This document shows positions 20,291-42,693 of a stretch of 53,569 nt of DNA, piece after piece (the stretch's first letter is position 1; each line of letters starts with the position of its first letter). The stretch is from positions 1-53,569 of IMG/VR virus record IMGVR_UViG_3300045988_160359; one strand, written 5' to 3'. A model generated the notes under the pieces. The model was given only the letters and a program-made list of their open reading frames with translations, made no database searches and was not told the origin of the DNA. The translations under genes were made by a program, and so were the position numbers. The DNA is from a virus.

Positions 20291-20346
20291 CAATCGAATT
20301 ATGGGCATAATGCCATATATAAAAAACAAGGGCTTTCGCCCTTGTC

Positions 20347-21415: not shown

Positions 21416-21534
21416 GTTGTGTATCTCCTTTGTTGTTTTGTTGTACTCATTATAACACGCCTATTTCGTTTTGTCTATTGGCAAACTATACAAATCGGGA
21501 TTGCGAATTTTGTGCGAAATTTTCGCATTTTTCT

Positions 21535-21640
21535 CTTGACAACTGGTGGGCTGCTGTGGTATAATATTTCGGGGCGCCACGTGCTTGATGAGCGCGACGA
21601 TGCTCGTTAAAATTTTAACAATCCAACAGCAAAAAATAAA
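21535..21640. promoter_or_regulatory. Promoter / hairpin module, followed by one TTTTAACAATC iteron
   Basis: Plus strand TTGACA-N18-TATAAT. The hairpin is cggggcgccacgtgc.... aaaattttaacaatcc lies at about 21613. Confidence 0.45.
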
Positions 21641-21646
21641 GGACGC

Positions 21647-21835
21647 TTATTCAGCGTCCCATTGAGTGATTTCTTCAAGGGTCAGCCCATAGAACTCAAC
21701 AGCTTCTGCCAGCTCCGCGGCTTCTTCCTCTGCGCCATAGCTTGTCCAATAGGCGTCCAGTAAGTTGATGATTTTCTCATAGGCTTCATCGGAAAGAGTA
21801 TCAATGATGTTGGAAACCTCGAATGTGTTTTTCAT
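21647..21835 (-). CDS. Hypothetical small acidic protein (62 aa)
   Basis: Intact ORF. Confidence 0.45.
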   Translation of the reverse strand: MKNTFEVSNIIDTLSDEAYEKIINLLDAYWTSYGAEEEAAELAEAVEFYGLTLEEITQWDAE

Positions 21836-22180
21836 TTTATGTACCTCATTTCTTAATTTCTGTATTCATTATAACACGCTTATTTGTGTTTGTCAATAGT
21901 TTTTTCAAAAAAAATAAAAAAAATAACAGGGCTTTTGCCCTGTTATACTGTGGGGATAAAACTCACAACCTTGCCGTGCTTGCGTTCCTCGACTTTGCGC
22001 TCCTGTGCGCTCAGACCGTAGAACCATGCCTGTGTGCCGTCCGCGAATTTGTACCAACCCTGTGTGCTTTTTTTCATTTTTGTGTACCTCATTTCTTAAT
22101 TTCTGTATTTAGTATAACACCTATTTCGGGATTTGTCAATAGTTTTTTCAAAAATAAACAGGGCTTTCGCCCTGTTTATT

Positions 22181-22369
22181 TTATTTAATTTTCAGAATTT
22201 CCTTGCCCAGCTTGCCGGACTTGAATACACGGCGGACGCTCACGATGTTGGCTTTTCGCAAAAACCCTATTGCGATGTTGTGGGCTTCGTTGCCCGTGCG
22301 GGCGATGATGGAAAGCGTCTGCCCCTCGGCGTTGATGCAGATGTAGGTATTAGCGATAGTGCGTGTCAT
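22181..22369 (-). CDS. Hypothetical small protein
   Basis: The start is placed at MTRTIANT after AAGGAGG. Confidence 0.4.
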   Translation of the reverse strand: MTRTIANTYICINAEGQTLSIIARTGNEAHNIAIGFLRKANIVSVRRVFKSGKLGKEILKIK

Positions 22370-22382
22370 AATTACTTCCTCC

Positions 22383-22619
22383 TTAATACATTTCCTCAGA
22401 CTGAGCAAGATAGAAATGGTCAATCTTGGTCAAGTCCAGCAGTTCGTACTTTTCCACACCCTCAGCAAGCAGGGCGTTCAGCTTGTCCACCAGCTCCGTA
22501 CCATTGTCCTTGCGTGCCTGAACGAACAGAAAGTCAGAACAGGTTTTCTCCCACTGTGTCCCTCTGTTGTAAACAACAGGCTCTTTCGTGGTGTAGCAGA
22601 CTCCATAGATGTTAGACAT
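22383..22619 (-). CDS. Hypothetical small protein
   Basis: The start is placed at MSNIYGV after AAAGGAGG. Confidence 0.4.
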   Translation of the reverse strand: MSNIYGVCYTTKEPVVYNRGTQWEKTCSDFLFVQARKDNGTELVDKLNALLAEGVEKYELLDLTKIDHFYLAQSEEMY

Positions 22620-22691
22620 TGTATCGTCCTCCTTTGTTTTACTGTAATCATTGTAGCACACATAGGGCAATTTGTCAAGAGGTTTTTTCAA

Positions 22692-23520
22692 AAATAACCT
22701 ACTTATTTTCGGGACAGAGATTGTGATTATTTTAACAATCGGATTTGCGATTTTTTTTCTTTAACACTTTAATGTAGTGAAGTCTGGGGCGTTGCGACCG
22801 TGTTCGGCATCCAACAGTGAATGTGAAATTTTTAACAATTAAACAGCGACTTCACCACATCCACACATTGTGAATTTTTTAACAATCTTGCTCGGTCAGC
22901 GAATGTATCAACTGTGCCGTGTGTATCCTGCTTGCTACCTGTGCAAGCGCACTCTTTACTCTCTTGCTCTTGGCTCTCACATTGTTAAACTTTTAACAAT
23001 CTTGCTCGCCCCTCTGTGAGGACTGTACGTTGCGGGATGCGCGCCGTTCAGCGCCCGCACTGCTGTGTTGTTTGGCAATTGTGCGAGGGCTTATTCTTGG
23101 GCGATTAGGGCCGTTAACGATGATGAACCTAAAAGAGAAATGGAATACTTACATTAGATTTGTTGGTGCGCGGTTCCCGGTGAGCCGACCGGTGGGAAGC
23201 GCGGTCTATTCTCTTATTGTTGGTCTATTCTCCTCCACCATCTACTACCCATAGCTCACCCTCTATCTCATACCCTACCATACCATACTACTATACTACA
23301 TTGTTAATACATTAACAATGTATCTATCATTGTGTTGTGTTGTGTGTTGTTCTCTTTGTCTGTTGGTCGTTCGCTCGTTGGCTCGCTCTGCCTTGTCCAC
23401 TGTGCCGTGCGTGTCCTTGTCCTCTTTTGGTTGAGTGATTGTTAAATCTTTCACAATCTTACTACATTATTAATCTTTTAACAATCTTACTACATCGTTA
23501 AATTTTTAACAATCTTAGGG
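22692..23520. repeat. Non-coding region with at least 7 TTTTAACAATCTT iterons, a 26-bp palindrome and a CA-rich to GT-rich switch
   Basis: Iterons lie at ~22735, 22843, 22884, 22990 and three tandem copies at 23440-23510. Palindrome tacattgttaa-taca-ttaacaatgta at ~23280. It is flanked on the left by ccataccatactactatactac and on the right by tgtgttgtgttgtgtgttg. Confidence 0.6.
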
Positions 23521-23536
23521 CAACAAAAAAACCTCC

Positions 23537-23632
23537 CTCAGTGAGGGAGGCAGATGAGGCACATCAAGATGCCAGTGCCCGCGACAACAGCGACCGCGGT
23601 GATGAAGCGCACGACTTTGTAGATGATAGACA
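23537..23632 (-). CDS. 31-aa hydrophobic peptide
   Basis: MSIIYKVVRFITAVAVVAGTGILMCLICLPH after AAAGGAGG. The cctccctcactgagggagg hairpin plus T-run follows. Confidence 0.3.
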
Positions 23633-24063
23633 TAGACCATTCCTCCTTTGATGATACTATTATACCAGATTTCAGGATGCGTGTCTATTGACAGAATACA
23701 CAAATTTGCAAGAGATTTTTTGTGGAGTTTGTATTTATTGCGAATGAGGACCGCGACAGCCATTCGCGGTCCTGCGAGTTGAGGGGTTGTATTGGGGATG
23801 GTCTAGTCTTTCCGCGTGCGCCAAGCCCAAGAAGGTCTCGATAGTGTTCAGATTTTTTCTCAGATAAAAACCGACCGGGGGGGGTGGGTTTCGGGAAAAA
23901 ATTTTTTTTGCTTTTTATTTTTTTGTTTGGCTGGTACAAACTCTCACCAAAACTTTTTTCAATTCAAATAACGGTAAAAAGAATTACTTTTTAATTTTAT
24001 TTCTACCAAAAAACCAAATAGGAAAAAATAAAATTAATCCTATCAATGCTAATGCTTCAAGAA

Positions 24064-24207
24064 TCATTTCTTATTCTCCTTCTTAGGGCGACCACGTTTA
24101 GGGTTTTCGCCCCATACAATTTGATGAACTGCTTTAGTAGCATAATAATTAGCTTTTTTCTGCATTTTAGCAGCGAGGGCATTTCCAAAACTTTTATATT
24201 TAGGCAT
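24064..24207 (-). CDS. Small basic protein (47 aa)
   Basis: MPKYKSFGNALAAKMQKKANYYATKAVHQIVWGENPKRGRPKKENKK. Confidence 0.35.
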   Translation of the reverse strand: MPKYKSFGNALAAKMQKKANYYATKAVHQIVWGENPKRGRPKKENKK

Positions 24208-25754: not shown

Positions 25755-25880
25755 ATTATAATAATAATACAAAAAATTTTTTTTATTGTCAAATTTTTTC
25801 CAATTAATAGTATCGTTTAAAAATTTTTTAAATGCATTTATTAAAATTTGACACCTGGAAAAATTTTTTGTATAATGAAG
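25755..25880. promoter_or_regulatory. Divergent promoter region between the minus-strand regulatory block and the plus-strand late module
   Basis: Plus strand TTGACA cctggaaaaattttttg TATAAT at ~25848-25876. Minus strand TTGACA-N17-TATTAT at ~25790-25760. Confidence 0.5.
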
Positions 25881-25904: not shown

Positions 25905-26966
25905 ATGATAAAATTAGATTATTCCTTACAAACTCCAGAAGAAAGAAATGAATTAGTCAAGAAAATATTAGAGGAAACCCCAGACCCCTCTCCTCGATAT
26001 TTAGAAATATTAGGGGACTATATCATTCTTTGTATGGAGAAACAAGAGAAAAAGGAGCGTAAATTATTAACTGATAATCGTATGGCAACAGTTAATAAAC
26101 GTGAAACATCTTTTGAAGGTCTTGTTTCCCAATTTGAGAATGGCGAAGATGGAATTTATAATTTAATTACTGAAAATAAAAATACAATATTTTAGCCTAA
26201 AATTACAATTACTAAAAAAGATATAGAAGAAATACCTCATTTAAAATAGTTAAGAGACGCCATTACTACTTGGGAAGCCAAATTACGAGTTAGCGAAGGA
26301 CGCGAGGCATTTATAATTAAACGTGCTATTATTGAAATGCGTAAAGATTAGTATGTTATTAAAAATGCAGTTCGTCGTCCAATTGTTATGACTAAAATTA
26401 CTCGTTCAAGAAATTTTATTCCATTAGAGGACACGACTTGCATTTTTGATGATGATGGTTATCCAATCCCGGATGGCGTTTCACTCTTAGACCCTAGAGT
26501 ATGTTCTGCAATTTTATGTAATTATTCTCGTTTAAAGCAAGATAGTTGGGGAGATTTTGAAAGAGATTTATGGTATATTATGGAAGATTTCGATAATTTA
26601 TGTACCATTGCTCTTAAAGATTATCCCTTATATGATAGAATAGTTGAATATAAAATTGATGGATTATAGAATATAGACATTCAAAAGAAAATTCAAGAGG
26701 AATTTAATATTACTCATAGTTTAGAATATATTTCTAGTTTATGGCGTAATAAAATTCCAAAATTAATCGCCTCTGCGGCTGAAGACCAATACCTATATGA
26801 TTATTATTTACATAAAGCAAAAGGTAAATATAAAAAATGTAGTCGCTGTGGGCAAATTAAATTAGCACATAATAAATATTTTAGCAAAAATAAAACTAGT
26901 AAAGATGGTTATTATAGTATTTGTAAAAAATGCCGTAATGCTAAAAACAAGGGCAAACAGTTATAA
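25905..26966 (+). CDS. Hypothetical protein with a C-terminal zinc ribbon (~353 aa, 4 in-frame TAG)
   Basis: Track fragments 25905..26195 and 26388..26669 are in one frame, joined through TAGs. The C-terminus reads CSRCGQIK...YYSICKKC. Confidence 0.5.
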
Positions 26967-27008
26967 TTTTGAGATGCCTGTTATTGGATAGATATAAGGA
27001 GGAAAATT

Positions 27009-28205
27009 ATGACTGTAGATAATGATAAAAAAGTATATTATTGCGAACGATGTAATAGAACTATGGGCGCTGACCAGTTTTATACATCTAATAATTTAGA
27101 AAAATATCCAAATGATGGAAAACTCCCTCAATGTAAAAAATGTATTACAATGCTTGTAGATAATTGGAATCCAGAAACTTATATGTGGATTCTACAAGAA
27201 ATTGATGTACCTTATGTTCCAGATGAGTGGAGTAAATTAATGGTAAAATATGGACAAGATAAATCTAAATTAACTGGTATGAGTATTTTAGGTAGATATT
27301 TGTCCAAAATGAAACTTAAACAATATAGAGATTATCGATGGAAAAATTCTGAGTTTTTATAGGAAGTGGCTAATAATAAATTAGAACAAACTATGAAACG
27401 ACAAGGCTATGATGCCCAGCAAATAGCAACAGCTATTGCTAAATCTACTGTCGCTATCCCAGAAGAAGAATTAAAACCTTACACTCCTGAATTACCAGAA
27501 CGTTTTAGAGATGGTGATGATTATTTTGATCAATAGAATGGTATTGAATATGATCCAGCAGATGACCTCGATTTAACAGAAGAAGATATTTTATATCTTC
27601 GTATGAAGTGGGGTAAAGCGTATAAACCCGAAGAATGGGTTAAACTAGAGCAACTCTATGAAGAAATGATGAGTTCTTATGATATCCGCGGCGCTGGCCA
27701 TATTGATACATTAAAATTAATTTGTAAGACATCCTTAAAAGCAAACTAGTTGATCGATATTGGTGATATCGAAGGTTTCCAAAAGATGAGCAAGGTTTAT
27801 GATAGTCTAATGAAATCAGGTAATTTCACCGCCGCTCAAAACAAAGCAGATACAGGAGAAGCATTTGATTCTATTGGAGAATTAGTGGCCATGTGTGAAA
27901 CTGAAGGATTTATTCCTCGGTATTATATGGAGGGACCAAAAGATAAAGTTGATGAAACTTTACAAGATTTAAAGAATTATACACACACATTAGTCACTGA
28001 AGAGATGAATCTAGGTAATCTCATTGAAGGGGCTATTAAGAAAATGCAAGAAGAAGAAAATAAAGAAGAAGACCAAGATATTGAAGAAGATTTAACGATG
28101 GAAGAAATCGATCATCTTAAAGATGAAGATTTAATTGAATATAATGATTTCCTTGAGGAAGAGTCTGAAATAGATGCTTAGACTTTAAGGAATTTAGAAG
28201 GATAA
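27009..28205 (+). CDS. Putative terminase small subunit (N-terminal CxxC...CxxC zinc ribbon, acidic C-terminus; 3 in-frame TAG)
   Basis: The call rests on its position directly upstream of terL. Track ORFs 27009..27362 and 27750..28181 share one frame. Confidence 0.35.
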
Positions 28206-28206
28206 T

Positions 28207-29940
28207 ATGGCTTTATAGGATTTACTTGATTTATCTTAGAAGCGTAAAAAGATTGGAATTTCAGAGGACCGTCTTCGTGCGATTATACCAGAAGCAAGAT
28301 AGTACATAGCCTTTTGGAGAGAATATCCAGATATGTTTATCGACTTCATGGCAGGACCTGATGGCGGCCCTCAACATTTTAAACTCTATTTTTATTAGAG
28401 AATCTTTTTGCGCGCTGCGATGCGTCATAAATATATTTATGCTGTATTCCCTCGTGCTTATTCAAAATCTTTTTTATCAATGATGGTCTTAATGTGTCGT
28501 GCGATTCTATATCCTAGATGTAAATTATTTATTACTTCTGGTGGTAAAGAACAAGCGGCTGGAATTGTAAAAGAAAAAGTTCAAGAAATTTGTACTCTTA
28601 TTCCTGCATTTTAGAAAGAAATAGATTGGCGTCGTGGTTAGACACTTGAAGGTAAGGATTATGTTAAATATGTATTTAAAAATGGTTCATATTTTGATAA
28701 TATTGCTGCAAGAGAATCTTCTCGTGGTAAACGTCGCCATGGTGGTTTAATTGAAGAGTGTGTTGGCGTTGATGGTGATATTTTATCACAAGTTATTATT
28801 CCTACAATGAATATTTCTCGTATGTGTATGGATGGTACTACTCAACCTGATGAAACTCTTAATAAATCTCAAATTTATATTACTACTGCTGGATATAAAA
28901 ATACTTTCCCCTATGATAAATTAATCCAATTATTAGTTTGGGAGATTGTTAAACCTTAGCAATCTATTATTATGGGTGGTACTTATCGTATTCCTGTTTT
29001 AATGAAATTGTTAGATGCGAATTTTATTAAAGACTTAAAAATGGACGGAACGTTCAATGAAAGTTCATTTGACCGAGAGTATGAAAGTAAATGGTCTGGC
29101 ACAGTAGAAGATGCATTTTTTAATGCTGAAATATTTGATAGAAATAGAATATTAAATTAGCCTGAATATGAAGCATCCGGGCGTAATTCAAAATTAGCAT
29201 CTTATGTACTTGCTGTCGACGTTGGCCGTAAAGGATGCGATTCAGTTATTTGTGTATTTAAAGTAACTCCACAATCACAAGGTGGTTCAATTAAAAGTTT
29301 AGTAAATATATATACATTATCTGATGAACATTTTGAAGACCAAACTATTAAATTAAAAAAATTATATTATAAATATAATGCTGATAGAATTGTAATTGAT
29401 GGTAATGGTTTAGGAATTGGTTTAATTGATTATATGGTTAAGACATAGATTGACCCTGAAACTAATGAAATTTTCCCTGATTTTGGCGTTGTTAATGATG
29501 ATGATTTATTTTATAAAAAATATAAAACATCTAATACAGTATTAGATGCTATGTATATTATAAAAGCTAATGCGCCACTTAATACTGAAGCTCATGCGAT
29601 TGCCAAATCACAACTTGCTTCTGGAAAAGTGAAATTTTTAATTGATGAGCGCGTAGCAAAAAATAAACTTCTTGCTAAAAAGAAAGGTCAAACCATGACT
29701 CCAGAATAGAGGGCAGAAGAATTAAAACCATTTACATTAACTTCCATATTAAAAGAAGAAATGATGAATTTGCGTGAAGAAACTGAAGGAGTAAATATTA
29801 TCCTGAAGCAAGCAAATAAAAGTATCCGAAAAGATAAATTTTCTGCTTTTGAATATGGACTATATTATTTAAAATTAGAAGAAGATAAAAAGAAGAAACG
29901 TAAAAAGTTTAATGCTAAAGATTGGTGTTTCTTAAATTAA
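28207..29940 (+). CDS. terL: Terminase large subunit (~577 aa) with about 10 in-frame TAG codons
   Basis: Walker-A-like VFPRAYSKSFL. Nuclease-domain motifs LAVDVGRKGCDSV and IVIDGNGLGIGLIDYM. Track ORFs 28408.. and 28972.. lie in the same frame and are separated only by TAGs. Confidence 0.75.
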
Positions 29941-29950
29941 GGAGGTAATT

Positions 29951-30307
29951 ATGAGAGCGTCTAGAGGCGAAATTAAAATTGAAGAGATTTTGCGACAAGC
30001 TGAATTACCATTTAAGATGGAGTATATTTTCCCAGATTTGAAGGCACCAAGCGGTAGACCTTTACGTTTCGATTTTGTCGTTTTTGATGATGATGGTAGA
30101 ATTGATTTTATTATTGAATATTAGGGTAAATAGCATTATGAGCCTAGTGCGAAATTTGGTGGTAAAAAAGGTTTATATCAACAACAATATAATGATAATC
30201 AAAAACGACGTTTTTGTGCTTTACATGATTTTAAATTAATAGAGATTCCTTATACAGATGAAAATCTTATTACATATGATTATATAATGCAATTAGCTGG
30301 ATATTAA
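29951..30307 (+). CDS. Small nuclease-like protein (possible PD-(D/E)xK/DUF559-like) between terL and portal, with 2 in-frame TAG
   Basis: RFDFVVFDDDGRIDFIIEY-x-GK-x-HY has an FDF...IExDG-H pattern. The RBS is GGAGGT. Confidence 0.4.
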
Positions 30308-30319
30308 GGAGGTGGAATT

Positions 30320-31981
30320 TTGGATACTAAAGAATTATCACGTTAGGAAATCATCCACTCCAAAGGATTTAATATCAGCAATGGAACAAGTGATTATCGA
30401 ACTGCTGATCCAACAGAATATCGTAAGATAAAAGTTGGGGTTCAAACATTAGATGATGCTGTATTAGATTTAGGGTCATTCGCTCGATTATATCCTAATC
30501 GCCGCGGTCCATGTCGTATGGTTACTAAAAATGATGTATTACGAGCTATGATAAATCGTGATATTGTTGAAATGCGTAGAATTTCTAATTTATTTTATGA
30601 TATTAGCGGTATTTATGAGCGAGTATGTAATTATTTTGCTTATTTGTATAGATATGATTGGTATGTTGCTCCAGAGATTTTAGATGATACAGTAAAAGAT
30701 GAAAAAGTTTTAAAAGATTTTTCAAAGTTATTAAATTACTTAGATAATACTTATATTAAAAAAATCTGCGGTGATATTGCTCAAAGTATTATGAAAAATG
30801 GTTGTTATTATGGATATATAGTACAATCTGCAAATAGCTTAATGTTACAAGAATTACCTGCTAGTTATTGCCGCTCTAGATACTTTGTGGCTGGTATGCC
30901 AGCGATTGAGTTTGACATGCGGTTTTTTGATTAGTTTCCAGATCCTAATTATCGTATGCGCGTATTAAAATTATTCCCCGAAGAATTTTAGCGCGGATAT
31001 GTTTTATATAAGAAAGGAAAATTACTTCCTGATATTAAGGGAGATTATAGTGGAAGTTGGTATTTACTATCTCCAGAATTAAGTGTAAAATTTAATTTTA
31101 ATGGTAGTGATGCCCCGCCATTTATTAATTCTATTCCTGCTCTTATGGATTTAGATGCTGCTCAAGATTTAGACCGCAGAAAACAAATGTAGAAGTTGTT
31201 AAAAATTATTGTTCAAAAACTTCCAATGGATAAAAATGGCGATTTAATATTTGATATTGATGAATCTCGTGATATACATAATAATGCTGTTGCTATGTTA
31301 TCAAGAGCTATTGGTGTTGATGTTTTAACAACATTTACTGATGTTCAATCTATTGATTTATCAGATAAAAATACTACAACTACTACAGATGATTTAGCAA
31401 AAGTTGAACGTACTGTTTATAATAATTTAGGTATTTCTCAAAATCTATTTAATACTGATGGTAATTTATCATTAGAGAAGTCTATCCTTAATGATGAATC
31501 AACTGTTAGAAACTTGTTGTTGCAATTTAACATTTTTTTTGATAGAATAGTAAAGATGAAAGTTGCGAACAATAAGAAATATAGTTTTAAATTTTATATG
31601 CTTGAAACTACACAATATAATTATAAAGAAATGTCAAAATTATATAAAGAACAGACGCAACTTGGTTATTCTAAGATGCTACCTCAAATTGCTCTTGGTC
31701 ACTCTTAGAGTTTTATTTTAAATACTGCGGTATTTGAAAATGATGTGTTGAAATTAACTGAAATTATGATCCCACCATTAATGTCTTCTACTATGAGTAG
31801 TCAAGATGTTTTGGGTAATAAAGGTTCAAACAATTAGAATAAAACACAAAATAATTCAGGAAGTAGTAATCAATAGACTACTACAAAACAGACTACTGAA
31901 ACAAAATAGTCTGGGCGACCTGAAAAGGCTGATGATTAGAAAAGTGAAAAAACCATAAAAAATAAAGAGTCAATGAATTAA
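30320..31981 (+). CDS. Putative portal protein (~553 aa) with about 8 in-frame TAG codons
   Basis: TTG start 7 nt after AAGGAGGTG. Track ORFs 30518.. and 31196.. lie in one frame. The call rests on size and the terL-portal gene order. Confidence 0.5.
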
Positions 31982-31992
31982 GGAGGTAAATC

Positions 31993-33582
31993 ATGAAGCA
32001 TCAAAGTATTAAACTTGAAACGCCTTGTGAATTTATTAATATAACTCCTATTAATCCTTTGATTTCTAAATGCCAAATTAAAGTTTGCTACGTTGGGGAT
32101 AAACCAAATCGCAATCGAAGCATTATTTCTAAAGAAACTGCGAGGGAGATGGCTAATAGTCTCCCTGGCAGTCCTATTGTTGGTTTTTACAATAAATCTA
32201 ATGGAGATTTTGAGGAACACAATAGAATTATTGATATTTCAAATGGAAAATTTGAAATGAAAGACACTACTAAACCTTACGGTTTTGTAGATTTAGGTGC
32301 CAAGGTTTGGTTTTAGAAATTTTTAGATGATGGCGTTAATGAACATGAATATCTTATGACTGAAGGATATTTATGGACCGGCCAATATCCAGAATGTAAG
32401 CGCATCATTGAGCAAGGCAATAATCATTCTATGGAGCTCGATGAAGGCACTTTAGATGGAACTTGGACGAAAGATAATAATGGAAAGCCGTAGTTTTTCA
32501 TTATTAATGAAGCAATTATTTCTAAACTTTGTATTTTAGGAGAAGAGTGTGAACCTTGCTTCGAAGGCTCCTCTATTACAAAGTTTTCTCTTTCATTTGA
32601 TGATAGTTTTAAAAATGAACTATACTCAATGATGAATGAACTAAAAGAATTATTAAAAGAAGGAGGAGCAAAAGTGTTTAATAGATATGCCGTAGAAATC
32701 GGAGATTCTCTATGGAGTGCTTTATGGGAATATGTAAATAAAGCTTTCCCTGATGGCTCTAACAATTATTGCTCTAAATATCGTATTGAAGGTGTTTTTG
32801 AGGATAATAGTCAAAAATTTGCTATTCTTCAAGATCGCGGAGATATGAAATATTATCGTTTAAACTTTTCTTTAAATGATTCTGATGGTCTTGTTCCTGG
32901 TGAAGGTTTAATTGAAGTGACTAAATCTTATACTCCAGCAGCAGAGCCTCAGTTTGCTTTAGATGCGGTTGAAGCTTATGAAGCCGAATTTAAGAAAAAG
33001 CAAGAAGAAGAAGAAAATAAAAAGGCAAACGATGATAAGGGCGATAATTCTGGCGACCCTGAGAACAAAAAAGATGATGGTTCTTCTAAAAATAATGGTC
33101 AAAAGTCAGAAAATGAAGATGACGATCCTTCAGAAGATGATGAGGATAAAAAGAAAAAGAAAAAGTATTCCTTGGATGAAATTGAAGAATACGTTAGCTT
33201 AAAGGCAGAATATGAAGAATTGCAAAATAAATTTAGTTTATTAGAGGCTGAAAATAAAACTCTAAGTGAAACTAATACTTCTTTAACTGAGTTTAAAAAT
33301 AGTATTGAACGCAAGGATAAAGAAGCTATGATTCAATCATTCTATATGCTGTCTGATGATGATAAGAAAGATGTTATTGATAACATTGATAAGTATTCTG
33401 TTGATGATATTGAAGCAAAACTTTCTGTTATTTGTGTTCGCAACAAGGTTAATTTTAACCTTGATGATGATAATAATGATAAAGGCCCAACTACCTATAA
33501 TTTAAGCAATTTAGATGATGACAGAGATGCTGGAATGCCAGCTTGGGTCAAGGCTGTTCTAGAATCAGCCAATAAAAACTAA
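31993..33582 (+). CDS. Putative scaffold (or protease-scaffold) protein with an acidic low-complexity and coiled-coil C-terminal half, and 2 in-frame TAG
   Basis: 31993.. and 32629..33582 share one frame. It has a KKQEEEENKK...EDDEDKKKKKK stretch and heptad-like LQNKFSLLEAENKTL. It lies between the portal and the capsid genes. Confidence 0.4.
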
Positions 33583-33600: not shown

Positions 33601-34536
33601 ATGTTTAAGGATTTTTTAAATTCTCGTTTAGGCGTTGGTAAAAATCCACCTAAGTCACAGGCTAAGTATGTTGAGTTTGGTTATGGTCAGGTTGAGCCAA
33701 ATCACCTGTCTGCACAAAGAACCGCTCAAATTTATGCTCAGTTGCCTGCTAACAAGGATATTAATATTCTTGAAAATGGCCAATTTGTCAAGTATGATTA
33801 CGCTGCTAATGCCAATGGTATTGGTGAAGTGAATTTTACTGGCAAGGGCGAGTGGATGCTAGTTTATAATGAGATTAAGTTATATCGCGATCATCCTGAT
33901 GGAACTAAGCAGTGGGATTGCGAATTTGCTATGCTAAAGGACGACTATCAGGCTCGTATTTATTCTCCATACGATTGGGAGCATACCGAGGTTGAATATG
34001 GTGGACGTTTCTGGAATGGTGTTGATGAAACTGGTGCTGATCACAAGGTGCTTGAGCACACTGTTGCTTTAGACCAGGGTCTAAAGACTGTTACCATCGC
34101 TGGCGAAGTTTATGATGTTAAGGACAATAAGTTTACTTATAATGGTGTAGAGTATGAGATTGATCCTAAGACCAATCAGACTAAGACTCCTGTGCCTGTA
34201 AAGTATACTTATGATAAGGTTCTAACTGATGTTGCTGACATTTACGAAGAGCTGACTTGGACTAATGATCCATATAAGAAGCTTGGTGTTTATCATGAGA
34301 AGCGCATGACTCCAGGCACTGCAATGGTTCCTCGTGTCTTTAAAACTAATGTTGGTGATCATTATACTACTAATATGATTAATGAAGATAGTGTTTCTGT
34401 TGGTGACATTTTAGCTCCAGCAGCTGCTGACGGAATTCTTGTAAAAGATGAGAGTCAGGATATGAAGTGGCAGGTTGTTAAGGTATATACTATGCCTGAT
34501 GGACAACGTGGCGCTAAAATTCTACGTATTGCGTAA
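33601..34536 (+). CDS. Head protein (311 aa), TAG-free
   Basis: Intact ORF with a strong RBS AAGGAGG and higher GC than its neighbours. Confidence 0.45.
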   Translation: MFKDFLNSRLGVGKNPPKSQAKYVEFGYGQVEPNHLSAQRTAQIYAQLPANKDINILENGQFVKYDYAANANGIGEVNFTGKGEWMLVYNEIKLYRDHPDGTKQWDCEFAMLKDDYQARIYSPYDWEHTEVEYGGRFWNGVDETGADHKVLEHTVALDQGLKTVTIAGEVYDVKDNKFTYNGVEYEIDPKTNQTKTPVPVKYTYDKVLTDVADIYEELTWTNDPYKKLGVYHEKRMTPGTAMVPRVFKTNVGDHYTTNMINEDSVSVGDILAPAAADGILVKDESQDMKWQVVKVYTMPDGQRGAKILRIA

Positions 34537-34553
34537 GAAAGGAGAGAAGAATA

Positions 34554-35660
34554 ATGTTAGATAGAAACAATTTAGTTGCTTTAATGAAGACTGTTGCTAA
34601 GGCTGATCCTTCTTCTCCTGTGGCTTACAGTTATAATGGTCAGAACCTTTCTTATGAGGCTCTGAACGATACTTTACGTAATGAGATGAATGAGCTAGCT
34701 GGTACTAATGCTCTATATCGTGAAAATAAAAATTTAATTTTCTCAATGATTGAGGAGACTTTGGATGAAGTTCTTCCTAAGAAGGTTTCTCAATCTTATG
34801 AGCAGTTTGCTGAAGTTAAGCAGTTTGCTCAGGGTGATAAGCCTATTTTCCGTCGTCCTCTAAATACACGCGCACGTGCTAAGCAGTTTGTGACTCGTGT
34901 TGGACTGGCTGGTATCTATGAAGTCTTCAAGCTGGGACCTGCTGAGAACGAGAGCTTTGAGGTTCGTACTTCTGCTATCGGCGGAGCGGCTCAAATCGGC
35001 TTCGAAGAGTTCTTAGATGGTCGTGTTGATTTTGCTGAAGTTACCAAGATTATTATGGATGGTATGGATGAACTGATTTACAAGGAAGTTGCTTTGGCTT
35101 TGAAATCTTCTATTAATCAGCTACCTCCTGCTAACCGTGTTGCTGCAGCTGGTTTTGATGAAGGTGCTATGGATCGTTTGATTACCATTGCTTCTGCTTA
35201 TGGTACTCCTACTATTTATTGTACTTATGAATTTGCTGTTCGTATGATTCCTAATGAAGCTTGGCGTTATACTGAAGCTATGAAGACTGAGCTGTGGAAT
35301 ACTGGTCGTTTGGCTACCTATAAGGGGACCAAGGTTGTTATTCTAGAGCAGGGCTTCGAAGATGAAAGTAATACCCGTAAGGTTATTGATCCTGGTTATG
35401 CATGGATTATTCCTACTGGTGTTGATGGCAAGCCTGTAAAGATTGCTTTCGAGGGCGGAACTATTGTTGATGAATTCAGCAATTATGATCGTTCTCGTGA
35501 GATTCAGGTTTATAAGAAGGTCGGCGTTGGTTGTATGTTGGCTAACAACATTTGCTCTTATGTTGATACTTCCTTAATGGGTCAAATGTATACTTGGAAT
35601 TATGATGGCATTACTGGTAAGGTTGTTACCTATGATGGCCGTAAGAGTGGTACTATTTGA
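34554..35660 (+). CDS. Putative major capsid protein (368 aa), TAG-free
   Basis: Size, position after the scaffold gene, strong RBS GAAAGGAGAG, GC-richer codon usage and a very strong terminator immediately downstream. Confidence 0.55.
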   Translation: MLDRNNLVALMKTVAKADPSSPVAYSYNGQNLSYEALNDTLRNEMNELAGTNALYRENKNLIFSMIEETLDEVLPKKVSQSYEQFAEVKQFAQGDKPIFRRPLNTRARAKQFVTRVGLAGIYEVFKLGPAENESFEVRTSAIGGAAQIGFEEFLDGRVDFAEVTKIIMDGMDELIYKEVALALKSSINQLPPANRVAAAGFDEGAMDRLITIASAYGTPTIYCTYEFAVRMIPNEAWRYTEAMKTELWNTGRLATYKGTKVVILEQGFEDESNTRKVIDPGYAWIIPTGVDGKPVKIAFEGGTIVDEFSNYDRSREIQVYKKVGVGCMLANNICSYVDTSLMGQMYTWNYDGITGKVVTYDGRKSGTI

Positions 35661-35689
35661 TTAAAACCTTAATATAACTATTGTTTAAG

Positions 35690-35728
35690 GGGAGAAGGGA
35701 TTTACTCCCTCTCCCCTTATTTTTTTTA
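35690..35728 (+). terminator. Strong rho-independent terminator after the capsid gene
   Basis: ggggagaagggatttactccctctcccc followed by ttatttttttt. Confidence 0.65.
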
Positions 35729-35748
35729 GAGAAAAAGGAGATAATAAA

Positions 35749-36336
35749 ATGATTCATTCTGAAGATATGTTTAATGTAAAAAATAGAAGTACTAGTGTTG
35801 TTGTATATAGAATTCCTGAGAGTAATTTGAGACGTGAGTGGGCACCTGGTGAAGTAAAGCGCATTCCATTTAGTGAATTAGAAAAATTGACTTATCAACC
35901 CGGTGGTCGTGAGTTAATTGCTAATTTCTTACAGATTATGGAAAATGAAGTTACTGATGATTTAAATGTCCATCGTGAGCCTGAATATAATATGTCAGAA
36001 GAGCAAGTGCGTGATTTAATTCTTAGTGGTTCTATTGATGCATTTTTAGACGCTCTTGATTTTGCTCCTATTGGGGTTATTGATTTGATTAAAACCATGT
36101 CTGTTCAACTACCCATTACTGATATGGCTAAGCGTGAAGCTCTAAAAGCTAAAACTGGTTTTGACGTAGATAAAGCTATTGAAAATGACCGTGCTAGTAA
36201 AGAAGATGATAAAAAGGAAACTATCGCAGATAAGCCAGCTGAAAGACGTGTTACAGAATCTGCTCCCGCAGGACGTCGTACATCTGGAAATGCTTACAAA
36301 GTAGTAAAGCAAGCTGAAACTAAATCTGCTGAATAA
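35749..36336 (+). CDS. Structural protein (195 aa), TAG-free
   Basis: Intact ORF with RBS AAGGAG. Confidence 0.45.
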   Translation: MIHSEDMFNVKNRSTSVVVYRIPESNLRREWAPGEVKRIPFSELEKLTYQPGGRELIANFLQIMENEVTDDLNVHREPEYNMSEEQVRDLILSGSIDAFLDALDFAPIGVIDLIKTMSVQLPITDMAKREALKAKTGFDVDKAIENDRASKEDDKKETIADKPAERRVTESAPAGRRTSGNAYKVVKQAETKSAE

Positions 36337-36357
36337 TAAATAAATAGGAGGCGTATC

Positions 36358-36945
36358 ATGGGAACTAAATTCACTGATATTTATAATCGCTTCCTTGGGA
36401 AAATTACTGATGACCTTTATATTGAATTAACTCCAGAAGACACAATTAAAGATTTGCGTGCGATACTTTTAAATATTTTACCTGAATTTGAATTTCCTAG
36501 ATTTGATATTTATGATTATACTATTGATTAGGAAATTAAATATGAAGATGAAATATTAGAAGATGATTTTGTAATTGGTCTTTTGTGGGAAGATGAAACA
36601 GATGAAGAATCAGAAATCCGCCCTCCTCGTGTAATGGTAGAACATTCATCTTTTGGAGCTGAATTAACGCCAGAGGAAATTAATATTTTAGCTATATTGA
36701 TGATGGTGAACTGGGTACAACGCCAAGTCACTTCTATTGAACACACTCGTATGAAATATAGTGGTTCAGATTTTAAAATGACTTCATAGGCTAATCATTT
36801 ACAAAAATTGATGTCTTTATTAAGTGAATGTTAGAGACAATCATTCCATATGCAACGTTTATATAAACGTCGTAAATTAGTAGAAGGGAAATACGAATCC
36901 AATTGGGGCGTATTTCATTATAAGAATTATCCTTATGATAACTAA
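36358..36945 (+). CDS. Head-tail connector region protein (~195 aa, 3 in-frame TAG)
   Basis: RBS AGGAGG. Track ORF 36583..36789 is in the same frame. Confidence 0.45.
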
Positions 36946-36973
36946 GTATCATACAGATATTTCTGATGAAGTC

Positions 36974-37234
36974 ATGGAGAAAAATATAGTAAGATTAACT
37001 AATCAACTGTGGAAATTAATCCCTATGAGAGAAAATGAAGAAGATTGGGATAAACAATTAAATACAGTTATTATTGAAGTTGCGGGCTTAAATGAAATTT
37101 TTATTTAGGACCCGCGATTTTTATAGTTGCTTAGTAAATTAGAAGGGCTAAATGTTTTAAATGATATTGAGTTCTCAATTTATAGAAAAACTGTATTTGA
37201 ATGTATTAGTTTATTATAGGAGATTAAAAAGTAA
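36974..37234 (+). CDS. Small protein (~86 aa, 3 in-frame TAG)
   Basis: MEKNIVRLTNQLWKLIPM.... The read-through frame ends in a TAATG overlap with the next gene. Confidence 0.3.
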
Positions 37235-38385
37235 TGCCAAAACGTCCAGAAAAAATGGAAAAATTATTGCCTTATGGTTTAAATACTAATAAAAGTGTAA
37301 ATCTTGTAGGGGCTCGTTTAGGTGATACAAGTATAAAAATTCCTTAGCCAGATTCAGTTGATGGTAGTTTAGATATGGCTAAAAGATTAATGAGTGCGGG
37401 TGGTTTTGCCCAACAGTAGCGAATGATCAAAGATAAACGACATTCGTTAGACCAAGCTACTAAATATTCTTATTAGGCGGCTTGGGTGCGTAAATGCGCG
37501 GCTACAGAGGTAGAAACTAAAAAAGAAAAAAATATTTTACCTCCTGTTCGAGCATTAATGAATCCTAATAAATTAAAATAGGATTATGATGATAAAGTTA
37601 TTTCAATTGGATTTGAACATAAATTTAATTGTGGAGATGTATTTGAATGGTGTAATACTGGAACTTATTGGTTAATTTATTTATAGGATTTAGATGAATT
37701 AGCTTATTTCCGTGGGGACGTTCGTAGATGTACTTATCAAATTCCATTTATGATGGATGATGAATTAAATGTAGTTTATGTGGCTAATCGAGGTCCAGTA
37801 GAAACTAAAATTGATTATATTCAAAAACATACTACCAGTGTAGACAATCCAAATTATTCTTTAAATTTATTAATTCCTAAAAATGAAAAAACTTTGAAAT
37901 TTTTTAAACGTTATTAGAAGTTTTATATTTGGCCGGAAGACGGTTCAGTTTATGATACTTGCTGGAGAGTTGAAGCTGTAAATAATATTAGCATGACTGG
38001 TGTTATTGAAGTAAATGCTGTTGAATATTATGCTAATGAGTTTACAGATGATCGAGACGCAGGATTAGCTGATGTATTTAAAATACCAGATCCAATATTA
38101 AAACGTAAAATTATAGATGATAACAAAGATAATAATAAAATTTTAAATATAGTTGGTGAAACCTTTATTAAGCCTAAAAAAGAATATGATTTTAATTTAA
38201 ATATTAAAAATGTTCGAGGAACTTGGAAAATTGAAGGCAATGATGTCCCTGTTCGAATTATTAGTGAAGGGACTAATGATAAAGGATTTTCAACAATTAA
38301 ACTTAAATGGGACTCTACTTATAGTGGTTAGTTTGATTTAGTATATGGAACTAGTCGAAAAACTATAGTAGTAGAATCATTGTTC
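37234..38385 (+). CDS. Connector/neck region structural protein (~383 aa, about 7 in-frame TAG)
   Basis: Track ORF 37993..38331 is in the same frame as the ATG at 37234. Confidence 0.45.
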
Positions 38386-38410
38386 TAATGAGTAAAAGGA
38401 GATTGAAAAC

Positions 38411-39013
38411 ATGAGAATAGACGGATATCATATTCCAAAATCAAGTTTTCTATCTATGGAAAAAGATACTGGGATTATTGTTAATGAAATATTAAAAAAT
38501 AATCGTTTAAAAAAATTATTATATTATACTAGTAGTGATGCTATGGAAAAACCTAATCTTACTGAAGATTAGTCTTTAAGTTTACTAGGAACTAATATTA
38601 AAATAGTGCCTAAATTATATGTTGATGGCTCTGTTTTAAATTATGTATTAATTAATTTTGATAATTTTATTCCCAGTGAAAATCCAGAGTTTAGAGATAA
38701 TACTATTCAATTTGATATTATATGTCATTTTGACCAATGGAATTTAAGAGATTATGCATTGCGCCCATATAAAATTGCTGGAGAGATTGATTCAATGTTT
38801 AATTTAAAAAAATTGACTGGTATTGGTTATTTAGAATTTGTGGGTGCTACTTAGATTGTTTTAAATGATGAATTTGCTGGGCTATGTTTGATGTATCGCA
38901 CTGTTCATGGTGGTGAAGATGAAAAGTATATGCCAACTTATCCTGATAAAAATAGTGGCAAAATTAAAGAGGAACAATTTATTAAAGAATTCAAGGATTA
39001 TATTAGTAAATAA
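38411..39013 (+). CDS. Structural protein (~200 aa, 2 in-frame TAG)
   Basis: RBS AAAGGAG. Track ORF 38606..38854 is in the same frame. Confidence 0.4.
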
Positions 39014-39741
39014 TGGATTACCGCTTAAGTTTAATTTGCGGAACTGATATGTTGATTCCTGAATGTAATTTAGTCGCTCATCAACCAAGGATAAAAGAAA
39101 TTTCATTTATTGGGGAATCTGATTTTTTTATTGGAGCATAGACCCTCTGTTTACATAAAACAATGTTTATAGAGGACAAAACTATTCTAGACAGTATCAA
39201 TAATTTTTAGATATTTATGACGATAATGTTATAGGATGAAACAAAGGATAAAAAAGCTAACATTTTAAATGTTTTAAATTTATTATTTCCATCATATAAA
39301 GTAAATGTGACACCAAACTCATTATTATTTATAAAAGAAGGTGTTCCTCCTATTACTGTAGATGGAAATAATTTTGAAGCATTACAAGAAGTGTTGCGTT
39401 TAATCTTTTGTATGCACAATGGCCCGATGGATTAGTAGGCTTTCAATCCTGCCAACGACAAGGCTCGTGAGATTGCTCAAAAGCTAATGCGAGGGAGACA
39501 GCGAGTTGCCGCTCAAAACGGTAATTCGAATGTAAGTGTTTTTAGTTAGTATATGTCAATCTTGACTATTGGATTAGGCTCAATGTCATTATAGGATTTG
39601 ACAAATCTGACAATGTTCCAATTATATGATTTAATGGAGAGATATACGCTATATACTGCTTGGGACCTGGATGTGCGCTAGCGTTTAGCTGGTGGTAAAC
39701 CTGAAGGGACCCCGGATAATTGGATGAAAAACATTCATTAA
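39013..39741 (+). CDS. Structural protein (~242 aa, about 8 in-frame TAG)
   Basis: TAATG start overlap. The frame is continuous through TAG codons only. Confidence 0.4.
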
Positions 39742-39768
39742 TTAAAAATACAAGGAGGAAATAACACT

Positions 39769-40848
39769 ATGAAATTCGGTGTCCGCGAAATTTGTGATGT
39801 TGTATTAAAGGCTAAGTCAGCACAGAAAATTGGTAATAAGATATTCTATGCTGGTGAACCTGTTATTTATTTTGACACCCTAAAAACTTCTAGTTTAGAA
39901 GGTGCTGCTACCACTGTATATGCACAAGGTGGTCGTGGTAACTCTCGTTTGGTAGCATGGGAAGGTGAAAGAACTTTAACCTTCACTATGGAGGATGCTT
40001 TAATTTCTCCTGAAGGATTTATGATTCTTTCCGGTGCTGGCTTAATTGCTGCTAATGCAGATAAGCCAATTTATCAGCATGTGACTGAAACTGTTGATGC
40101 TAGCGATTCTTTACGTTTTAAGTTTGATGCTGCTGGATTTAAGTTCGCTGTTTATACTGAAAATAAGCCTTATCTACCTGCTAATGCTGGTGATAACTTC
40201 GCTTATGTAATGTTTATGAAGAATGGTGAAATTACTACTGAGCCTTATATTCCTGTTCATGAGGGTGATGATACAACTATTGATAATGAGGCTATGCCTG
40301 AGACTGTAACTGATGTAGATGGTAAAACTTATTATCGTGTAGCTGTTATGGATCATAAAATGTATGTTGGTTTGGCTTCTTACGAGGATGAGCAAAATGG
40401 TGGTCATAAGTATACTCCAGAAAGTGGAGATAATACTGCTTATGATGTAGTTACTCTACCAAATCGTCTAAAGTTCGATTCTGTGTTAGTTGATTATTAC
40501 ACTGAGCGTAAGTCTGGTGCTACTCAAATGGAAATTACTGCTGATAAGTTTGGTGGTAACTATTATCTTGAGGCTTCTACTCTATTCCGTGATACTAATG
40601 GTGTAGACATGCCTGCTGAGTTCATTATTCCTAACTGCAAGATTCAGTCTAACTTCACCTTCACTATGGCTTCTTCTGGTGACCCAAGTACATTTACTTT
40701 CACCTTAGACGCATTCCCTGATTATACTCGTTTCGATCATAGTAAGAAGGTTCTGGCTGCAATTCAAGTAATTGAGTATCTGGATAATGAGGATTTACAT
40801 CGTCATAGTACAGTTCACCAGAAATCTCACGATAGTTATAATTGGTAA
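39769..40848 (+). CDS. Putative major tail protein (359 aa), TAG-free
   Basis: RBS AAGGAGG, a strong terminator downstream, and a position upstream of the chaperones and tape measure. Confidence 0.5.
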   Translation: MKFGVREICDVVLKAKSAQKIGNKIFYAGEPVIYFDTLKTSSLEGAATTVYAQGGRGNSRLVAWEGERTLTFTMEDALISPEGFMILSGAGLIAANADKPIYQHVTETVDASDSLRFKFDAAGFKFAVYTENKPYLPANAGDNFAYVMFMKNGEITTEPYIPVHEGDDTTIDNEAMPETVTDVDGKTYYRVAVMDHKMYVGLASYEDEQNGGHKYTPESGDNTAYDVVTLPNRLKFDSVLVDYYTERKSGATQMEITADKFGGNYYLEASTLFRDTNGVDMPAEFIIPNCKIQSNFTFTMASSGDPSTFTFTLDAFPDYTRFDHSKKVLAAIQVIEYLDNEDLHRHSTVHQKSHDSYNW

Positions 40849-40867
40849 TTTAATTAAAAATTTTATG

Positions 40868-40900
40868 GGGAGAGGATTTATTCCTCTTCCCATTTTTTTA
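40868..40900 (+). terminator. Rho-independent terminator
   Basis: ggggagaggatttattcctcttcccc followed by attttttta. Confidence 0.6.
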
Positions 40901-40922: not shown

Positions 40923-41987
40923 ATGGATAAAATTAATAATTCATCTTATGATTTAACACAAGCAATTTAGGCAGAATTTAAACGAATTGCTCCCTCATTA
41001 GTTTCTGAAGTATCAAATAGTTATATTAATGAATACAAACAAATTAATTCTGAATTAATAGAAGATACATATAGAGATGTTATAGAAAAAGCAATTGTTT
41101 TTCGTGAGGTATGTCGTTTTACTTTAATGCAACGCACTAGTAAGAAAAGTCTTACAATTCGTAAGATTGATCAATATGAAGAAATTACTTATACTGCTTT
41201 ACTTAATTTTCAGAATGCTTTTAATACTCTTAAAAATTAGACAATAAAAATGATATTTGTTTATAAAGGTGAAAATGGGGAGTGGACATTAGGAGAAGGG
41301 GAAAATGATTTATCTCATACCGCTAAAAATCAATGGGGACATTTATGGTATTCATTAAAAGGTATCGAACATACTCTTCAAAAAATTGATAATGGATTTG
41401 ATGCTCGCAAAAATTTAGATGCTACAATGAATGAAGTCCAAAAGAGATGGGATATTTCTAAAAAGAAACACAATGATAAACAAAGAAATTTACCAATATT
41501 ATGGAAAAATGGACAAGGTAAATGGGATGGATATTTTATAAATAATCAAGGAACAATAAAAGAAGCTTATGCAAAATTTTATTTACATAAAATTGCAGTA
41601 GATAATGGAGTTGCTACAGAAGAGTCTGTGAAGTATTTTATTACTGATGAAAAATATGGTGCATGTTCAGTAGACAATACCCCAGGATTTGCAATAGGAG
41701 ATACAAATATTGGTAATATTCATTATGCTATTAAATCAGAAAGTGCTAGTCTATTAGGATATGCAACTTTATATAAACAAGCTAAACAATTATGTGATGA
41801 TTTAATTAGTGCAAAAACTATGACAACAAAAGAATTAGAAAATGCTTTTAATGTTTTTGTTAATGGGAAGAATACTCCTGTAAAACAAGCTGTAAGAATA
41901 GCCGGAGAAGAGTTAGTTATGGCTAATGGTGATTATAAAAAAATTGCTATTCCAACCAAAAATAAAAATAAGAAAAAATCTAAATAA
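40923..41987 (+). CDS. Tail assembly region protein (~354 aa, 2 in-frame TAG)
   Basis: 40923.. and track ORF 41250..41987 share one frame. Confidence 0.45.
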
Positions 41988-42053
41988 TAAAAAAATTGAC
42001 AATAAACTAAATTTTTAGTATAATATAAATAAGTGTAAAAGGAGGATTTTGAA

Positions 42054-42578
42054 ATGGCAAGAGTAACATTTTCAAAGTTAAATTTAAGTAAAAATATAGA
42101 AGTATCAACCTTTGAATGGGGAGATTAGATTATTGAAGTCAAAGATTATCTTCCTATTGGAGATAAGTTAAATCTTATTTCAGAAATTATTAATGATTCT
42201 ATTGATAAAAATGGTTATTATAATCCTGCTCGTGTATATCTTCATACTATTTTAAAAATGATTATGGCATATACAAATGTAAGTTTTACTGACAAGCAAA
42301 AAGAAGACCCAAAGAAATTATATGATTTAGTAGTAGGTTCTGGTTTTTCTGCTAAAGTATTTGGAGAAATTAATCCAGGAGAATATGCACAAATTAAAAG
42401 TTGGGTTGCGGAAACTATTCATTCAATTTATGAGTATAAAAATTCTGCGGCTGGTATTTTAGATATTATTTCTACGGATTATAAAGATACAACATTTGAT
42501 ATGGAACAATTAACTAATGACATTCAGAATCCTGAAACATTAGGATTGCTAAAAGATGTTTTGACCAAGTTGGGATAA
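42054..42578 (+). CDS. Tail assembly region protein (~174 aa, 1 in-frame TAG)
   Basis: RBS AAAGGAGG. Track ORF 42258..42578 is in the same frame. Confidence 0.45.
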
Positions 42579-42626
42579 TTAAACTATTTAATTTTTTAAA
42601 ATTAAATAGGAATAATCAAGTGTATG

Positions 42627-42663
42627 GGTGTGAGAAGATTATTTCTCACACCCATTTTTTTTG
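42627..42663 (+). terminator. Rho-independent terminator
   Basis: gggtgtgagaagattatttctcacaccc followed by atttttttt. Confidence 0.6.
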
Positions 42664-42693
42664 TTTATATTATGAGAGAAAGGAGTCCCGTTT

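Follow-up and report, generated by a model that had tools for sequence, protein, structure and literature searches.

Why should a gut phage whose late genes treat the stop codon TAG as a sense codon keep a few of those genes free of it? The question is raised by a 53,569-nucleotide stretch of viral DNA (IMG/VR virus record IMGVR_UViG_3300045988_160359, positions 1 to 53,569; hereafter, the window), in which every gene from position 25905 to the end lies on the + strand. With starts chosen by Shine-Dalgarno sites, this late block resolves into 19 genes, and four of them (33601-34536, 34554-35660, 35749-36336 and 39769-40848), each of which has an ATG start and a Shine-Dalgarno site, contain no in-frame TAG. 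The second and fourth encode the major capsid protein and the tail tube protein, while the first and third flank the capsid gene. It is likely that purifying selection holds these four genes almost TAG-free, acting in the most abundant virion proteins against a codon that would be inefficiently decoded.

The recoding itself is clear. Long open reading frames (ORFs) in the late block appear only when TAG is treated as a sense codon, and ORFs of at least 100 amino acids (aa) cover 93% of the 53.6-kb window on that reading, compared with 57% under translation table 11. For example, under table 11 in-frame TAGs interrupt the terminase, portal and tape measure genes, each of which is a single ORF under table 15. 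Where recoded lineages have TAG, standard-code relatives mainly have CAA or CAG (one of these is the commonest codon in 12 of the 16 genes tested, and AAA or GAA in the other 4), which supports the reading of TAG as glutamine. The window, with a GC content of 36%, is best explained as part of a large siphovirus of the phAss-1/Enterococcus-phage-EF1-like group, its late genes apparently written in code 15 and its early genes in the standard code. All 18 complete late genes stop at TAA apart from the capsid gene, which uses TGA (35658-35660), and TAG terminates none of them.

Within this block, the exclusion of TAG from the four genes is complete. They hold 0 TAG in 1233 codons versus 143 in the 7763 codons of the other 15 late genes (Fisher p=8.5e-10), or 0 of 37 glutamine codons versus 143 of 378 (Fisher p=7.8e-8), and the difference remains when the tape-measure and fibre genes are removed (p=5.6e-7 per codon, 2.6e-6 per glutamine codon). 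A position-specific base-composition model for each gene expects about 23 TAG codons in the four genes, and the ratio of TAG to CAA, two codons of equal GC content, is 0:15 there versus 143:213 in the other late genes (p=7e-4). Neighbouring genes carry from 1 to 8 TAG codons in the smaller ones to 63 in the 2765-aa tape measure, with no clear skew in TAG position along genes. The four genes are also GC-richer (0.36-0.41 versus 0.25-0.34 in other late genes), a difference seen at each codon position, and CAG supplies 22 of their 37 glutamine codons, compared with 22 of 378. An original prediction, made from the letters of the window, had described these ORFs as TAG-free, GC-richer than their recoded neighbours and set among TAG-bearing genes, and had proposed per-gene codon statistics under table 15 as the check; the description was borne out, and the depletion stays significant after correction for length and composition.

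The same genes have been kept nearly free of TAG across related phages. When IMG/VR was searched with the capsid protein, 198 loci were recovered (capsids 77-100% identical), 80 of which were kept with ±10 kb of flanking sequence. The kept set comprises 61 recoded and 19 standard-code loci, which dereplication at 95% nucleotide identity reduced to 31 and 4 lineages, respectively. In every one of the 31 recoded lineages, TAG makes up a smaller share of glutamine codons in the four genes (0-11%) than in the neighbours (20-46%; sign test p=9e-10). Pooled over lineages, the counts are 37 of 1334 versus 1500 of 4421 (odds ratio 0.056), and TAG:CAA stands at 37:553 versus 1500:2442 (odds ratio 0.11). 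Gene by gene, TAG accounts for 9 of 452 glutamine codons in 33601-34536 and 5 of 417 in the capsid gene (31 lineages each), 16 of 195 in 35749-36336 (30 lineages) and 7 of 270 in the tail-tube gene (26 lineages), and these rare TAGs are mostly restricted to one lineage each. At columns where glutamine is conserved, all 24 of those in the four genes are polymorphic for CAA and CAG, so that synonymous turnover is saturated, while TAG is found in 7 of the 24 and is never the majority codon; in the neighbours, TAG is seen in 66 of 69 such columns. Likewise, four-fold-site identity among the recoded lineages reaches 0.64 in the capsid gene and 0.63 in the tube gene, compared with 0.39-0.52 in TAG-bearing neighbours, as expected under selection on synonymous sites. 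The range of TAG use looks graded, since the scaffold-like gene and 42054-42578 are intermediate (about 0.2 of glutamine codons).

The identity of two of the four products is clear from homology (Table 1). By tblastn, the capsid gene matches genes annotated as major capsid proteins in Bacillus phages (Kirov and the Thrax phages), and its product is 50% identical to that of phAss-1; the tail-tube gene matches genes annotated as “major tail protein” or “tail tube protein” in Tsamsa-like Bacillus phages; searches of PDB sequences with both proteins returned nothing useful. For 33601-34536, the sole PHROG match was phrog_35301, an unknown-function family, and a Pfam search returned no matches. Its AlphaFold2 (AF2) model was poor (27-sequence alignment; predicted local distance difference test, pLDDT, 52) and gave no significant Foldseek match in the PDB; the top hits, among them the phage capsid entries 8pkh, 9kzj and 9kmg, were non-significant and were not counted as evidence. 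By its position, this protein is a candidate capsid accessory or decoration protein. In lambda and SPP1, the decoration-protein gene sits directly upstream of the capsid gene, the same place as 33601-34536, which offers a lead only. The AF2 model of the 35749-36336 product was acceptable for residues 1-153, residues 154-195 being disordered, and Foldseek likewise found no significant match to it in the PDB.

Table 1. Coordinates of the late-block genes, signals and other features discussed in the text (window positions unless a locus of a related phage is named).
Feature	Position	Strand	TAG and codon use	Basis or details
Small standard-code genes, none above ~230 aa, GC 42-51%	5400-24200	-		ORF lists and PHROG matches
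Six late genes	25905-33582	+	2-10 in-frame TAG each
Large terminase (TerL)	28207-29940	+	TAG-containing	PHROG match
Portal	30320-31981	+	TAG-containing	PHROG match
Scaffold-like gene, acidic coiled-coil tail	31993-33582	+	TAG-containing; intermediate TAG/Gln (0.20) across lineages
ORF, 311 aa, unknown function, directly upstream of capsid gene	33601-34536	+	TAG 0, CAA 4, CAG 9; GC 0.40
Major capsid protein gene, ends in TGA	34554-35660	+	TAG 0; CAG 8 of 11 Gln	tblastn to annotated genes; phrog_4088
Intrinsic-terminator-like hairpin and T8 run after capsid gene	35687-35727	+		96-nucleotide stretch 35655-35750: -26 kcal/mol, z -2.5
ORF, 195 aa, unknown function; folded N-terminal domain, disordered charged C-terminus	35749-36336	+	TAG 0	AF2 pLDDT 71
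Five TAG-rich genes between capsid and tail-tube genes	36358-39741	+	2-8 TAG each, 10-33 per 1000 codons; TAG/Gln 0.34-0.52 across lineages
Major tail (tail tube) protein gene	39769-40848	+	TAG 0	tblastn; phrog_2729 (virion structural protein)
Intrinsic-terminator-like hairpin (12 bp) and T-run after tail-tube gene	40865-40900	+		Kept in 15 of 27 lineages
Two genes between tube and tape measure	40923-42578	+	In-frame TAG
Small gene with own promoter and terminator	42054-42578	+	TAG/Gln 0.19	Consensus-like promoter upstream (41996-42024); terminator (14-bp hairpin and T-run) downstream (42624-42665)
Tape measure, 2765 aa	42694-50991	+	63 in-frame TAG	Homologous to phAss-1 ORF of 3150 codons
Tail-fibre-like gene, partial, continues past window end	51104-53569	+	23 in-frame TAG
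tRNA(CUA) genes of relatives	L108 7965-8054; L112 9078-9167; L134 3369-3458; L101 7777-7866
Recoded crAss001-like loci	L243, L244, L274, L288-L291

The pattern suggests that decoding TAG exacts a cost when hundreds of copies of a protein are needed, and a mechanism can be proposed. A phage suppressor tRNA in limited supply (a single species) would compete with the host release factor 1 (RF1) at TAG, so that each TAG would carry a risk of slow decoding or premature termination, and this cost would rise with the number of molecules made. For self-assembling lattice proteins, the cost is perhaps higher still, in that truncated subunits could poison assembly. The genome may therefore be written in two dialects: one for the early and highest-copy virion genes, which would be host-like, GC-richer and TAG-free, with CAG for glutamine; and another for the low-copy late genes, which would drift toward AT-rich codons, with CAA and TAG, and be served by the phage’s own tRNA array. 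The original prediction had added that TAG gates the rest of the late genes, but the TAG-free pattern needs no such gating.

Signals of expression support this proposal in part. The four genes had been said to carry the strongest Shine-Dalgarno sites, a claim that did not hold up: their duplexes with the anti-Shine-Dalgarno sequence range from -8.9 to -11.2 kcal/mol, whereas 29951-30307, the portal gene and 31993-33582 reach -12.4, and the energies of the four are thus ordinary for the late block. Strong terminators, claimed for all four, are found after the capsid and tube genes, and nothing comparable follows 34536 or 36336. A terminator-like hairpin is kept after the capsid gene in 26 of 34 lineages, after the tube gene in 15 of 27 and after 42054-42578 in 27 of 27, versus at most 2 lineages for each of the other 13 genes tested. 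Conserved terminators after genes are the usual arrangement for boosting major structural products. Tail length follows tape-measure length, and a tape measure of 2765 aa would imply a very long tail with several hundred tube subunits. Homology, the conserved terminators and codon bias together point to the capsid, tube and flanking genes as those likely to have the highest expression. What is well supported in the prediction is selection that keeps TAG out of the capsid and tail-tube genes: the depletion is TAG-specific, holds in every recoded lineage and recurs in phAss-1 and crAss001-like phages. The support once sought from Shine-Dalgarno sites and from terminators after all four genes falls away or holds by half. 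As for 42054-42578, it acts like a separately boosted unit and may encode a tail assembly chaperone.

An independent view of the pattern is provided by phAss-1, the nearest relative so far described and a member of the NCBI “Caudoviricetes code 15 clade” with three suppressor tRNAs, for which the genus Phassvirus has been proposed (PMC10607447). It shares homologous capsid, tube, terminase and portal proteins, a very long tape measure and TAG recoding with suppressor tRNAs, but its proposed genus differs from that of the window and its gene order is rearranged. Identity to phAss-1 is 50% for the capsid, 44% for the terminase and 40% for the portal, and the tail tube is 39-55% identical to its homologues. 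EF1-type Enterococcus phages, which use the standard code, are more distant (41% capsid identity to EF1). In phAss-1, the homologues of the scaffold-like gene, 33601-34536, the capsid gene and 35749-36336, together with a 538-aa tube gene and the next ORF, all lack TAG at 45-51% GC, compared with 0.33-0.43 in its other genes; all 15 glutamine codons of the capsid gene are CAG, with no CAA or TAG. The tape measure ORF of 3150 codons, by comparison, holds 110 TAG codons at 36% GC. The published description of phAss-1 (Babkin et al. 2023; PMC10607447) identifies this ORF as the tail tape measure protein and reports that TerL and the tape measure carry TAG, and it makes no comment on the TAG-free capsid and tube genes. 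The lineage of the window, with about 200 IMG/VR loci, is much more abundant than phAss-1; a single homologue of the 35749-36336 product, 96% identical to it, is recorded on 145 contigs.

The pattern also recurs in crAss001-like phages, which differ from the siphovirus group of the window in host phylum and in morphology. Of 80 loci closely related to the crAss001 capsid gene, just seven, representing four lineages, are TAG-recoded. The crAss001 virion has a T=9 capsid with nine gp32 and nine gp36 per asymmetric unit (~535 copies of each) and ring proteins in 12 copies (PMC10172136). TAG accounts for 3 of 131 glutamine codons in the capsid gene gp32 and for 0 of 21 in the capsid auxiliary gene gp36, versus 167 of 671 in the other late genes pooled (p=2.6e-11 against gp32 and gp36), 22-40% in the 12-copy ring proteins gp43, gp40 and gp35, and 45% in the muzzle gp44. 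Borges et al. found the crAss “tail tube” family to be preferentially recoded, a conflict that is only apparent because this “tail tube” is a 12-copy ring protein and not a polymeric tube. Some recoded crAss001-like capsids are 94% identical to that of the standard-code crAss001, so the code switch in this group is recent.

Whether unrelated recoded lineages, the Firmicutes siphoviruses and the Bacteroides crassviruses, avoid recoded stops in proportion to virion copy number is an evenly balanced question. If they do, suppression would be leaky or costly throughout late infection, host RF1 would not be neutralised, and the ratio of recoded to canonical codons in each gene could serve as a predictor of protein stoichiometry in uncultured recoded phages from sequence alone. 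In that case, the products of 33601-34536 and 35749-36336 would be flagged as high-copy capsid-associated proteins.

Several other explanations can be offered for the same four genes. One is timing: the TAG-free genes might be translated before the suppressor tRNA builds up, or regardless of the state of the code switch, the capsid and tube subunits being stockpiled while TAG gates the other late proteins. The preference for CAG that these genes share with the early standard-code genes (61% of glutamine codons there) would fit, as would the published models (Borges et al.) in which recoded stops delay late and lysis proteins. However, the four genes are interleaved with TAG-rich ones in a single co-oriented block, with gaps of 17-88 nucleotides and no strong promoter match before them; a capsid protein is of no obvious use without the TAG-bearing portal, terminase and connectors; and the graded copy-number pattern in crAss001-like phages fits a cost model better than a switch, all of which makes exemption by timing unlikely. 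It is quite improbable, too, that the absence of TAG is a by-product of composition, in which GC-richer genes, through their amino-acid content or codon bias, make AT-rich codons rare and TAG itself goes unselected. Although GC is raised at each of the three codon positions (GC1, GC2 and GC3), CAG is preferred in standard-code relatives too, and even off-frame TAG is sparser in the four genes (0.028 versus 0.047 per codon), TAG:CAA is 9-fold lower in them despite equal GC content, and the position-specific model still expects some 23 TAG codons. In addition, TAG is excluded from the four genes even though CAA/CAG turnover is saturated at every conserved glutamine column, and 35749-36336 is TAG-free at an ordinary GC3 of 0.18.

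Descent has also to be considered, in that capsid and tube genes might be repeatedly replaced from standard-code relatives and be TAG-free for that reason. In neighbour-joining trees, drawn without support values, the standard-code lineages are nested at two positions inside recoded diversity, which implies that the code has been gained or lost at least twice in the family, and several placements disagree between the TerL plus portal tree and the capsid plus tube tree. The disagreement makes some mosaicism likely, yet it does not explain the TAG-free pattern. At four-fold sites, the identity of the window's four genes to their counterparts in every standard-code relative averages 0.46-0.59, near saturation and no higher than in most neighbours, which argues against recent import; moreover, the standard code is found in just 4 of 35 lineages, and the depletion recurs in phAss-1 and crAss001-like phages, so that module exchange is highly improbable. 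CAG makes up 49-83% of glutamine codons in the four genes of the standard-code relatives (83% in 35749-36336), compared with 9-32% in their neighbours, and the early genes of the window share the preference; the codon bias of the four genes is thus independent of recoding. The capsids of the standard-code loci (L025-L037, L056-L059 and L067-L068) are 81-87% identical to that of the window. Finally, 4 of 19 genes might happen to lack TAG. They were, after all, picked after the fact for that very lack, and the shortest of them (195 codons, 5 of them for glutamine) would be TAG-free with a probability of 0.03-0.09, but the joint probability in the window is about 1e-10 and the same orthologs are depleted in 31 of 31 lineages, and chance may be regarded as already refuted. 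On the TAG statistics, four-fold identity and conserved glutamine columns, then, three explanations were rejected: chance, composition by itself, and recent import from standard-code phages.

Selection against TAG in abundant virion proteins must itself be weighed against a number of contrary points. The rank of the four genes in expression is deduced, and two of them have no assigned function. Among TAG-rich late genes, the TAG share of glutamine codons varies from 0.19 to 0.52 with no obvious link to copy number, and in crAss001-like phages the 12-copy gp39 has TAG at just 1 of 23 glutamine codons; copy number is thus an imperfect predictor of TAG use. Because the recoded lineages are related, pooled p-values overstate their independence, and the sign test and the count of distinct TAG columns are safer guides. 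The base after TAG in the window is A in 42% of cases versus 30% (p about 0.1), a weak and non-significant excess in the direction expected for efficient suppression, so there is no direct sequence signature of RF1 competition. Lastly, no tRNA gene lies in the window or in 31 loci of ±10 kb, and pattern and synteny searches did not find a suppressor tRNA for the window’s own near-identical lineage.

A tRNA(CUA) gene is, nevertheless, present in at least seven recoded relatives of the 80-locus set (capsids 81-90% identical), one in each (Table 1 gives four), and in phAss-1; no standard-code relative is among the matches listed. The array in which it lies also holds decoders of A/U-ending codons (Ile-UAU, Leu-UAA, Leu-UAG, Arg-UCU and Val-UAC) and is dispersed, with 0.5-1.3 kb between tRNA genes. 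The tRNA(CUA) of the relatives is about 90 nucleotides long and is labelled tRNA-Pyl by ARAGORN; about 20 of these nucleotides separate the anticodon stem from the T arm, as either an insert or a long extra arm.

Other features of the window deserve mention. The early block (Table 1), 19 kb at 42-51% GC, adjoins the late block at 25-35% GC. TAG is depleted 3-fold there in all three - strand frames, and the 31 early - strand ORFs end in TAA (21), TGA (9) or TAG (1). A codon-usage model trained on late genes missed these GC-richer genes, and plain ORF lists and PHROG matches were used instead; the matches are few, one being to a 5'-3' deoxyribonucleotidase, and parts of the block appear to have their own promoter and terminator. 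On the + strand at 3100-5350 lies a second AT-rich islet (GC 20-36%) with ORFs that use TAG: in 3308-3766, all five glutamine codons are TAG, with no CAA or CAG, and 4328-4807 has two TAG codons. Perfect 12/12 matches to the sigma-70 consensus (TTGACA, 17 nucleotides, TATAAT) occur at 25848-25876, ahead of the first late gene where the late block and the - strand genes diverge, and at 41996-42024. Between the tube terminator and the latter promoter, 40923-41987 is poorly conserved, with a detectable homologue in just 3 of the 80 related loci, at about 27% identity, and resembles a variable slot within an otherwise syntenic module. By their position, the five genes of 36358-39741 may be connector or head-tail joining genes; the sole one searched, 37234-38388, matched phrog_31155, an unknown-function family. 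An Rfam search gave no matches at gathering thresholds, and the late block had no megablast match among annotated phages.

Recoded phages are common in gut viromes, and both the cost and the purpose of recoding are debated. The near-absolute exclusion of TAG from a set of genes is population-genetic evidence for imperfect TAG decoding in the infected cell, and it constrains models in which recoding is a clean on/off switch. Cook et al. (2024) found a capsid protein in 407 of 715 code-15 genomes with standard-code annotation, versus 475 with table 15, counts that fit capsid genes being often TAG-poor, although the authors do not say so; TAG avoidance would suggest why 407 of those 475 are recovered even in the standard code. 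In practical terms, TAG avoidance is a cue to abundant structural proteins of unknown function that can be read from a genome by itself, and for the engineering of code-locked phages it hints at the genes to leave alone or to aim at.

The window has much in common with the code-15 gut phages already described (Borges et al. 2021/2022; Yutin et al. 2021; Peters et al. 2022): in-frame TAG occurs in the structural or late block alone while early genes are standard, relatives carry tRNA(CUA), and standard-code and recoded relatives are closely interleaved. Those studies asked about families enriched in recoded stops, such as lysis genes and the crAss “tail tube”, whereas here it is a depletion that is conserved. 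Such depletion in major virion proteins was not reported in the open-access papers on recoded phages that were consulted, and a report elsewhere is possible.

In classical translational selection, abundant proteins use distinct, more constrained synonymous codons. The four genes appear to resemble that case in their use of CAG and of more NNC codons and in the conservation of capsid and tube four-fold sites. They differ in that the disfavoured codon is a host stop, the penalty for which is probably premature termination, beyond slow decoding.

The closest parallel comes from ciliates. In Oligohymenophorea sp. PL0344, in which UAA and UAG are reassigned, the reassigned codons are rarer in highly expressed genes, which are GC-richer, and earlier work cited there reported highly expressed genes to be GC-richer in Tetrahymena and Paramecium (PMC10553269). 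Avoidance of reassigned stops is thus paired with higher GC, as it is in the window and in phAss-1. In ciliates, however, the code is fixed and genome-wide and the release factor is modified, and in the ciliate study expression was measured. The phage, by comparison, has a partial reassignment that presumably comes into force during infection and must operate against host RF1, and its expression levels are deduced. The contrast in the phage is also near-absolute within one gene block, at 0-2% versus 20-50% of glutamine codons. Taken as a whole, the finding is probably best read as the phage counterpart of the expression-linked codon selection known from ciliates, a pattern that was predictable from theory but is unusually clean, conserved, and replicated in an unrelated recoded lineage.

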